Below are positions 9,958 to 23,675 of a stretch of 24,908 bases of DNA, piece by piece. Every line of letters starts with the position of its first letter. Positions within the stretch are counted from its first letter, which is position 1. The notes beneath the pieces were generated by a model that ran no database searches, had not been told where the DNA came from, and was given only the letters and a program-made list of their open reading frames with translations. Origin of the DNA: Gammaproteobacteria bacterium (GTDB taxonomy: Bacteria; Pseudomonadota; Gammaproteobacteria; HTCC5015). The position numbers and the translations under genes were made by a program. Location of the stretch: assembly GCA_036381555.1 (NCBI GenBank), contig DASVCP010000330.1:1-24908 (forward strand). The letters are read 5' to 3'.

Positions 9958-10062
9958 AGTATGAAGTATATGAGTATTGAAGTATGAGTATGTGAGTTCA
10001 AAAGTAGCGATTGATCTTTCCCGGCTTGAATAACTCTCATACTCAAATACTTTTATACTTCA
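9958..10062. repeat. Palindromic element with AGTAT-based 6-8 nt subrepeat arms
   Basis: Left AGTATGAAGTATATGAGTATTGAAGTATGAGTATGTGAG; right CTCATACTCAAATACTTTTATACTTCA. Positions 9962-9988 and 10036-10062 pair at 23/27. Confidence 0.75.
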
Positions 10063-14067: not shown

Positions 14068-14333
14068 CTCACGCAAAGGCGCGAAGGCGCAAAGGAAATA
14101 AAAAATGAGTTGCTATTCTATTCATGACTGCCGGAAATGAAGTGAAGAGCGCTCTGTGTGAAGGAAGGATACTTTAGGAATGATTAGATATGTATTCGAC
14201 AGGTAAGAAGATTTTGCTTCCTGGTTTTACCTTTCAATGCTCTGCCAGCTTTTAACCCTTCGCGACTTAGCGCCAACGTTCAGGGACGAACTAATGCCGC
14301 GTAGGCAGGAGCCGAGAGCGGTATTTGCGTGAG
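14068..14333. repeat. Palindromic intergenic cassette, CGCAAAG-arm variant, copy C (right arm interrupted)
   Basis: Left arm 14068-14095 is CTCACGCAAAGGCGCGAAGGCGCAAAGG. The right arm is split into 14257-14274 (15/18) and 14324-14333 (10/10) by a 49-bp insert. Confidence 0.82.
14275..14323. repeat. 49-bp insertion with a GGA-loop hairpin inside the right arm of copy C
   Basis: Removing 14275-14323 restores a contiguous 28-bp arm. The insert has ATGCCGC...GCGGTA(T) and GGC-AGGA-GCC stems. Confidence 0.65.
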
Positions 14334-14352
14334 GCCATTTTATAAATTCAGC

Positions 14353-19925: not shown

Positions 19926-20079
19926 TAACCACGGAGGACACGGAGATCACTGAGAAAGAAAAGTAAAAGATCTTCAGGAAATGCTTAATGCCCGTGATTA
20001 TTTGCCGTTCTCGGATGAGCTTGATCTTTTGTTTAACGTAAATGTTTTTACTCTGTGAGCTCCGTGTCCTCCGTGGTTA
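19926..20079. repeat. Palindromic intergenic cassette, CACGGAG-arm family, copy E (154 bp)
   Basis: Left arm 19926-19954 TAACCACGGAGGACACGGAGATCACTGAG and right arm 20051-20079 are inverted repeats (27/29), around a 96-nt interior. Confidence 0.92.
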
Positions 20080-22606: not shown

Positions 22607-22759
22607 TAACCACGGAGGGCACGGAGAGCACAGAGGATAAAAACATTTAAAACTAAAAACAGTATATGCAAAGAGCTAAAAATTAATGAAAGTGGGAAAA
22701 AATTCCTAAAAGATCTTCAATTCATTTTTTCTCCGTGTTCTCCGTGCCCTCTGTGGTTA
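22607..22759. repeat. Palindromic cassette, CACGGAG-arm family, copy F (153 bp), overlapping the moeB 3' end
   Basis: Left arm 22607-22635 TAACCACGGAGGGCACGGAGAGCACAGAG and right arm 22731-22759 are inverted repeats (26/29), around a 95-nt A-rich interior. Confidence 0.92.
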
Positions 22760-23507
22760 AATTTTTTAAATCCCCGCAAACGGCACAGCCCGGGTCTTTG
22801 TTGAGTTTCAGGTTGCGCCATTGCAGGGTCGCGGCGTCCAGCAATAACAGACGGCTGTCGAGCGGTTCGCCGATACCGGTAATCAGTTTGATCGCTTCCA
22901 GCGCCTGCATGCTGCCGATGATCCCCACCAGCGGACCGATGACGCCCACATCGCTGCAACGTTCGCCGACGTCGGTCGCGTCAGGATAAAGGCAGGCGTA
23001 GCACGGGCTGCGGGGCGTGTTGTTGAAGACGGCGATCTGGCCTTCCAGACGGATGGCCGCGCCCGAGATCAACGGCTTGCCTTTATCGACGCAGGCCTGG
23101 TTGACAGCGTAACGCGTGGCGAAGTTGTCCGTGCAATCCAGGACGATATCCACGCCGTCGATTGCCGTGACGATATGGTCAACCGTGATCTTTTTATCGA
23201 GGCTGTGAATTAGCAGGGTCCGGTTGATTTCCTGCAAGCGCCCGGCGGCAGCCGCGGTTTTTTTATGACCGAGATCGTGATCGTCGTACAGTATTTGCCG
23301 ATGCAGGTTGGAGAGGGCGACCCGGTCGAAGTCGGCCAGCGTCAGCTCGCCGATGCCCGCCGCCGCCAGGTAGATGGCCGCCGGTGAACCCAACCCGCCG
23401 AGCCCGACGATCATCACATGCGCATCGCGCAACGCTTCCTGGCCTTCGTAACCGAAGTCCGGCAGCACCATCTGGCGCGTATAACGATTAAGCGTTTCGT
23501 CGTCCAC
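22722..23507 (-). CDS. moeB: MoeB/ThiF family adenylyltransferase (E1-like)
   Basis: Motifs RYTRQ, GLGGLGS, DFD.V..SNLHRQ, DCTDNF, zinc motifs CYAC and CAVC, and the catalytic Cys in ERCSDVG. GTG start. Confidence 0.92.
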   Translation of the reverse strand: MDDETLNRYTRQMVLPDFGYEGQEALRDAHVMIVGLGGLGSPAAIYLAAAGIGELTLADFDRVALSNLHRQILYDDHDLGHKKTAAAAGRLQEINRTLLIHSLDKKITVDHIVTAIDGVDIVLDCTDNFATRYAVNQACVDKGKPLISGAAIRLEGQIAVFNNTPRSPCYACLYPDATDVGERCSDVGVIGPLVGIIGSMQALEAIKLITGIGEPLDSRLLLLDAATLQWRNLKLNKDPGCAVCGDLKNLTTEGTENTEKK

Positions 23508-23525
23508 TTGTTTCTAACTGATATT

Positions 23526-23675
23526 TAGCCACGGAACCCACGGAAAAACACGGAAGATAGGAAGGTTTAATAAAACGTTTAGCTTTATCTTTTACTTTAG
23601 CAAATCGAGCATGATAATGAATAATCATGTTTTACTATAAACAATTTCCATGTTTTTCCGTGGGTTCCGTGGCTA
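23526..23675. repeat. Palindromic intergenic cassette, CACGGAA-arm variant, copy G (150 bp)
   Basis: Left arm 23526-23555 TAGCCACGGAACCCACGGAAAAACACGGAA and right arm 23646-23675 are inverted repeats (29/30), around a 90-nt AT-rich interior. Confidence 0.92.

Follow-up and report, generated by a model that had tools for sequence, protein, structure and literature searches.

The inverted repeats of this contig are probably gene-less hairpin cassettes whose arms would be recognised by a cognate protein. The variants that one arm mirrors in its partner are best explained as a chance identity of common spacers in copies E and F, and in copy G as the mark of a repeat dialect that is common to both arms and to many other copies. 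An earlier note on this DNA had concluded that arm variants co-vary inside single copies and not from one copy to another, and had offered selection on pairing or the copying of one arm onto the other as the cause. For the copies it cited this interpretation was not sustained, and what stood of it is a concerted change of arms and units across the wider family.

The window, i.e., the whole 24,908-nt stretch that was analysed, is contig C330 of a draft genome of 3.58 Mb (563 contigs, 55% G+C). Its copies are listed in Table 1, together with the three gene-carrying cassettes discussed below. A main-type arm is built of TAAC followed by three CACNGAG units with 2-nt spacers and a 9-nt period, and the two arms enclose an AT-rich interior. 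The letters quoted in the earlier note were found as given for spacer 1 of copies F (GG in both arms) and E (GA in both arms), and for copy G, whose arms are complementary at 29/30 positions (97%). The mirrored GAGCRCA reported for copy A is a near-match, but the letter R hides a mismatch, since spacer 1 reads CA in one arm and CG in the other. Spacer 2 was unequal between the arms in all four main-type copies of the window (F, AG/AA; E, AT/CT; A, AG/AA; B, CG/AT), and so was spacer 1 of copy B (GA/AA). The heptamer variants of copy F, G,G,A on the left and A,G,G on the right, were not mirrored either. Across the genome GA is the most frequent spacer 1, and GG takes second to fourth place according to which set of arms is counted. 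With the match rate of 0.20 that holds genome-wide, the probability that at least two of four copies agree at spacer 1 is 0.18.

Table 1. Repeat copies and associated genes in the window (contig C330), and gene-carrying cassettes on other contigs.
Feature	Contig	Position	Strand	Description
Copy A	C330	2793..2940		main type; CACAGAG/CACTGAG units; spacers CA,AG and CG,AA
Copy B	C330	4090..4240		main type; spacers GA,CG and AA,AT; zero spacers mirrored
Copy C	C330	~14072..14335		CGC dialect, TCA sub-type; 8-nt period; insert breaks right arm
Copy D	C330	15172..15338		CGC dialect, TCG sub-type; CGCTGAG A CGCRGAG in both arms
Copy E	C330	19926..20079		main type; arms 19926-19954 and 20051-20079; spacers GA,AT and GA,CT; between gatA and gatB
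Copy F	C330	22607-22759	+ and -	main type; two arms
Copy F left arm	C330	22607..22635	+	TAAC then three CACNGAG units, 9-nt period; spacers GG, AG
Copy F right arm	C330	22731..22759	-	spacers GG, AA; units CACAGAG, CACGGAG, CACGGAG
MoeB/ThiF-like gene	C330	22722..23507	-	between copies G and F; reading frame continues into F
Copy G	C330	23526-23675		CACGGAA dialect; arms 30 nt
Copy G left arm	C330	23526..23555	+	CACGGAA dialect; TAGC end; spacers CC and AAA
Copy G right arm	C330	23646..23675	-	CACGGAA dialect; one unit is CATGGAA
Cassette with GxxExxY gene	C197			main-type arms, multiple tandem units; gene intact
Cassette with GxxExxY gene	C95			G-type arms, 28/28 identical; gene intact
Cassette with GxxExxY gene	C428			CGC-type arms; gene broken by stop

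A pattern scan of the genome gave 223 good main-type arms, with exactly three units in 211, and 67 clean inverted pairs that measured 122-267 bp outer end-to-end; a further 59 main-type arms had a less perfect partner. The pattern used to pick the arms demands near-consensus units, which narrows unit variation and cannot bias the spacers. Over the 29-nt arm of the 67 pairs, left arms were 85.5% identical to their own right arm and 84.9% identical to the right arms of other copies (z 1.3, p 0.10), with left-left identity at 83.6% and right-right identity at 85.9%. Spacer 1 matched that of its own partner in 18 pairs against 13.2 expected (p 0.08), and spacer 2 in 11 against 11.5.

Similar results were obtained with the sub-family of copy G, which has CACGGAA units, a TAGC or TGGC end and the spacers [T/C]C and AAA, and comprises at least 21 complete copies. 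Among the 15 pairs with full 28-nt arms, identity was 95.7% to the own arm and 95.5% to the arms of others (p 0.39). The single common polymorphic site was concordant in 9/15 pairs (6 TT, 3 CC), which is about chance, and the left arm of copy G itself was identical to 7/28 arms of other G-type copies. This comparison of each left arm with its own right arm was the check proposed in the earlier note, and run genome-wide it turned out negative in both types. Variants thus co-vary within copies only at the level of the dialect. Since own arms were no closer than foreign arms, no copying process acts on the gene-less copies, and the idea of ongoing copying in the copies cited lost its footing, their arms being equally close to those of other copies.

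The dialect level is where the two arms do agree. Both arms of every copy share one unit type, i.e., CACGGAG, CACGGAA or CGCRRAG. The CGC type, with 40 inverted pairs in the genome, splits by end motif and spacer into the sub-types TCA (G spacers), TGA (A spacers), TCG and TCT, and the arms agreed in sub-type in 28 of the 30 pairs (out of 40) that were classified by hand, against 9.4 expected. In the family at large, a single dialect runs through the six units of each cassette, and dialects differ at up to 4/7 positions. Arms and units therefore change in concert over long times, for which pairing, copying or recognition by one protein are candidate drivers. The dialect concordance is real, and it is best read as membership of a sub-family tied to a cognate cargo protein.

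A candidate for such a protein is found in the family. Some arm pairs enclose a gene for a protein of ~125 residues that belongs to Pfam PF13366 (PD-(D/E)XK, 'GxxExxY'). In this genome each of the three dialects has a GxxExxY gene of its own between its arms (Table 1), and the D...E-x-K motif is kept in all three. The class was sampled more widely through 150 further genomes, in which some 22 of 28 PF13366 genes were tightly framed by inverted sub-repeat arms; this sample held more than 10 dialects, several of which may coexist in one genome. The distance between the proteins rose steadily with the Hamming distance between the unit consensus sequences, from a p-distance of 0.53 at 0 to 0.65 at 4 (Mantel r 0.47, p<1e-4, n=19 cassettes), a co-divergence of gene and arm that would equally follow from simple co-inheritance. 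A label of CAC or CGC placed on the protein tree gave no significant result (5 changes, where shuffled labels most often gave 6-7), and the distance test was used instead.

On one side of the GxxExxY gene of C197 (C197:2200-3350, L120) there were three tandem 65-bp units of the main-type arm, and on the other side units of ~172 bp that combine the arm with a further module of hairpin-like form (CCGCCATCCGTGGCGG). Tandem multiplication of arms is thus possible. On another contig (C341:3600-4140, L118), a PF05635 four-helix-bundle gene lay beside a truncated second copy, and both genes stood between arms made of CAGAAT/CTGAAT sub-repeats, within an AT-rich stretch.

We propose that the small, nuclease-like GxxExxY protein recognises the three-unit array. 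Each arm would be a composite recognition site, so that both arms and all units stay within the dialect of the cognate protein; the units would remain conserved, the spacers would wander among allowed states, and the interior or loop would drift or be replaced. The constraint on the arms is consistent with this reading. The units were strongly conserved in sequence, beyond mere complementarity, and the 2-nt spacers were loosely constrained, position-specific and purine-rich, with a T content of 3% at spacer 1 of main-type arms vs 34% in interiors. Interiors had 31% G+C vs 55% for the genome. Homogenisation of an arm by slippage was also considered for this genome, and was rejected: the two spacers of an arm were equal in 13 cases where 24.3 were expected, a shortfall that argues against recent slippage.

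The alternative that survives best, although we consider it unlikely, is that one arm is copied onto the other by fold-back repair, hairpin-templated synthesis or template switching, perhaps only at the birth of a lineage or when a cassette is active. In its favour, several gene-carrying cassettes of other genomes had arms that were alike even at the spacers (28/28, 29/29, 29/29, 42/43 and 30/31), values that refer to the best-matching stretch reported and so flatter the identity. The single dialect of all six units of a cassette would also be expected from copying, despite the extent to which dialects differ, as would the unit-specific mirrored variants of copy D and of the CACTGAG sub-group. 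In that sub-group, the copies with CACTGAG as the first unit had T in both outer units in 3/3 cases; we attribute these variants and those of copy D to shared descent, short of proof. Against copying stand the 67 main-type and 15 G-type pairs in which own arms were no closer than foreign ones, and the perfect arms of intact cassettes can simply mean youth. Occasional arm-to-arm copying is a possible candidate for the intact cassettes with spacer-identical arms, and it enters a broader scenario that we put forward tentatively and hold to be doubtful. One genome may harbour at least three orthogonal dialects of nuclease plus repeat, with sub-types, each protein reading its own array. New dialects would arise by a concerted change of six units and the protein. 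Within a lineage the two arms would begin as copies of each other, made by hairpin-templated synthesis or repair, and would then persist as the DNA between them is continually replaced.

Selection on base pairing, in an RNA stem or a DNA cruciform, which would offset each change in one arm by a matching change in its partner, is a very improbable explanation of the mirrored variants. The copies do fold into long hairpins far more stably than shuffled sequences, with -60.8 kcal/mol for the RNA of the whole copy F (z -8.3) and -41.8 kcal/mol for the DNA of copy G (z -10.5), and a search of the whole window against Rfam at gathering thresholds returned zero matching families. The variable positions, however, were paired no more than in shuffled partners, and the pairing selection claimed for the cited copies was not borne out. 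Watson-Crick pairs were found at 110/268 spacer positions (41%), equal to shuffled partners, and the 31 co-directional copies had 50 such pairs vs 57.5±5.1. Only G-U pairs in the sense transcript were slightly in excess, with 24 vs 18.6±2.3. A mutual-information matrix of all variable positions contained no spacer signal on the pairing diagonal; the cells that stood out were h1-h1, h1-h2 and h2-h1, plus a stray off-diagonal cell (s1a-h2). Moreover, the conservation of the units in sequence exceeds what complementarity alone would maintain.

The one genuine signal came from position 4 of the units (G, A or T), where own-partner matches were above expectation in the two outer units, unit 1 (57 vs 44.9) and unit 2 (51 vs 43.6). 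In unit 3, where this position is the most variable unit site, partners matched in 31% vs 38% expected. Moreover, the correlations of the non-G state were as high between units that do not pair (L1-R2 0.58, L1-L2 0.49, L2-R1 0.56) as between those that do (L1-R1 0.53, L2-R2 0.34). Because the correlation is equally strong across non-pairing units, it is a property of the whole cassette rather than base-pair compensation; it is the CACAGAG/CACTGAG sub-dialect, or CpG decay inside the unit. Cassettes from other phyla were also considered as evidence of pairing. Their spacer-1 matches exceeded expectation (22 vs 11.9; 68 cross-phylum pairs), but the non-pairing control, in which the left spacer 1 is compared with the right spacer 2, was raised too (19 vs 12.6). 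This excess was therefore rejected as a sign of pairing, and the raised control points to lineage-specific sub-families. In two short cross-phylum cassettes the spacers were swapped between the arms (L014:1049-1142, AA,GT vs GT,AA; L062:6055-6130, GG,AA vs AA,GG), and thus these arms are direct-order, not mirror-order, copies.

The interiors bear on how the copies spread. Across the family, 27-220 nt of AT-rich DNA lies between the arms, and its sequence is unrelated from copy to copy. When the main-type interiors were compared all-against-all by BLAST, only 15/67 showed any similarity, and this consisted of a short arm-adjacent motif or nested repeats. The G-type interiors (27-188 nt) were likewise unrelated by BLAST, except for one tandem duplicate and five composite copies. 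These interior comparisons, whose G-type set included the gene-bearing interior of C95, revealed no similarity indicative of cargo-gene remnants. Cassettes on contigs from four soil metagenomes had the same arms and different interiors, and none of these short, mixed-organism contigs held a readable orthologous copy. In the composite cassettes, a CACAGAG cassette or arm of the main type lies inside or next to outer arms of the CACGGAA type (C63:6786-7000, C191:6770-6975, C195:226-458, C308:7240-7353 and C556:18623-18866). The linker and inner arms of the five composites were 80-88% alike, and G-type arms across the sub-family ~96% alike, a comparison that suggests constraint on the outer G-type arms. 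To judge from these alignments, plain copy-and-paste from a master would fail to explain unrelated interiors between G-type arms that are so similar; near-identical arms with unrelated interiors need strong constraint on the arm together with fast turnover of the loop, or another way of spreading. The earlier note had named as its own counter-case a few sub-families, each with near-identical arms and interiors. Sub-families do exist (main, CACGGAA and the four CGC sub-types), but their interiors are not alike.

An ordinary MITE family, spread by a conventional transposase from one or a few masters that the mirrored variants would mark, is the least probable of the explanations. It has in its favour the terminal inverted repeats, the intergenic positions, the empty sites at the same junctions in related genomes and the existence of sub-families, but the interiors of main and G types are not homologous, and the sole cargo seen between such arms is the gene for the PD-(D/E)XK protein and not for a transposase. 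No target duplication could be demonstrated. The variable base before TAAC showed no left-right dependence (mutual information 0.01); the TTAA/TAAC ends are palindromes that belong to the conserved arm itself, and the empty sites are too diverged to align.

The arm pattern was present in genomes labelled as many phyla (more than 117 matches), mostly as inverted pairs. The density of the repeat family corresponded to about one intergenic gap per 20 kb of genome, and the copies lay between convergent genes in 24 cases, co-directional genes in 31 and divergent genes in 8. Junctions in relatives show the cassettes to be insertions. At the gatA-gatB junction, which is occupied by copy E in the window, most relatives searched had a gap of 25-66 nt without such a cassette. 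In other relatives the junction contained a short cassette in a different dialect (G005), inserts that include GxxExxY (G004 and G010) or other inserts; the nearest genome in this comparison was only ~80% identical in gatA/gatB.

The junction between moeB and the JAB gene was empty and 9 nt long in a relative with 70% protein identity (L146). It reads TGA-CGCAGAG-AAATG (L146:3240-3256), i.e., a single unit of the CGC dialect between stop and start, and this lone unit may be chance, a footprint or the seed of an array. In relatives near 80% identity, the same junction held a full CGC-type cassette in one case (L144:1830-1960, 81%) and a degenerate CACGG cassette in another. The MoeB/ThiF-like protein of the window has 261 aa vs about 247 aa in relatives; the flank and right arm of copy F (22722-22805, minus strand) encode the 16 residues at its end (DLKNLTTEGTENTEKK). 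The original stop codon was thus replaced when the copy inserted. In the relative L145 (80% protein identity), the MoeB/ThiF-like protein also extends into a degenerate arm.

Published literature on TIGR02436, PF05635, GxxExxY and PF13366 yielded no description of the arms, and a full-text search for the heptamers returned primer and guide noise only; the cassette family thus appears to be undescribed in the searchable literature. Several known systems resemble it in part. Integron attC sites have RYYYAAC ... GTTRRRY ends and a variable centre, and form cassette arrays beside an integrase. The main-type ends, ATTTAAC ... GTTAAAT, fit this motif; the G-type ends (TAGCC) do not. The present copies lie between housekeeping genes on more than 100 contigs, in both orientations. 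The closest published parallels are the Ssn/NTS and REP/RAYT systems. In Ssn/NTS the gene of a GIY-YIG single-strand nuclease is flanked by its own dispersed hairpin repeat and the enzyme acts on it (PMC11893778). The cassettes and Ssn/NTS share a small nuclease gene with its own repeat on both sides, the dispersal of the same repeat in hundreds of copies around ordinary genes, and the pairing of variant repeats with variant nuclease homologues (NTS vs NTSvar) (PMC11893778). They differ in that the cargo here belongs to PF13366 (PD-(D/E)XK) instead of GIY-YIG and is a putative nuclease, and in that the NTS repeat is a compact hairpin of ~30 nt, whereas the present cassettes are paired three-unit arrays 27-220 nt apart.

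The REP/REPIN-RAYT systems are also made of dispersed intergenic repeats, found alone, in tandem or as inverted pairs, with several repeat families per genome that are each linked to a particular small gene, and with enrichment after gene ends (in the present genome, 24 convergent vs 8 divergent). A single arm here, however, consists of direct sub-repeats and is not a palindrome, and the cassette copies do not share a loop, as REPIN copies do. Three matches to a Y1-transposase-like protein (PF01797; C472, C17 and C145) lay on contigs without arms. The ORF-bearing intervening sequences of 23S rRNA (S23p, PF05635) are likewise small AT-rich cassettes with inverted ends and one tiny gene, a likeness that extends in this genome to the PF05635 gene of C341 with its CAGAAT-like arms. 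They differ from the window copies, which sit between protein-coding genes and have no ORF, and from the full-length relatives of these copies, which carry PF13366. Correia/NEMIS and ERIC elements are comparable as inverted-repeat elements of ~150 bp that lie inside operons and form long transcript hairpins, but they have conserved interiors and ordinary ends; here only the sub-repeat arms are common to the copies.

The structural RNA or hairpin-acting DNA repair that the claim of mirrored variants had implied falls with that claim, and what comes in its place is a repeat family linked to a family of small, uncharacterised PD-(D/E)XK proteins. If the protein reads the arms, it would join Ssn as a second type of small site-specific nuclease, with a simple, modular recognition code, and would account for the thousands of intergenic hairpins that metagenome-assembled genomes contain without annotation. 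The repeats probably add to the fragmentation of such assemblies, as in the 563 contigs of this genome. The window also contains, at 9958-10062, a palindrome of short AGTAT-containing sub-repeats that abuts a gene end; its unit is unrelated to those of the cassettes, and its design is alike.
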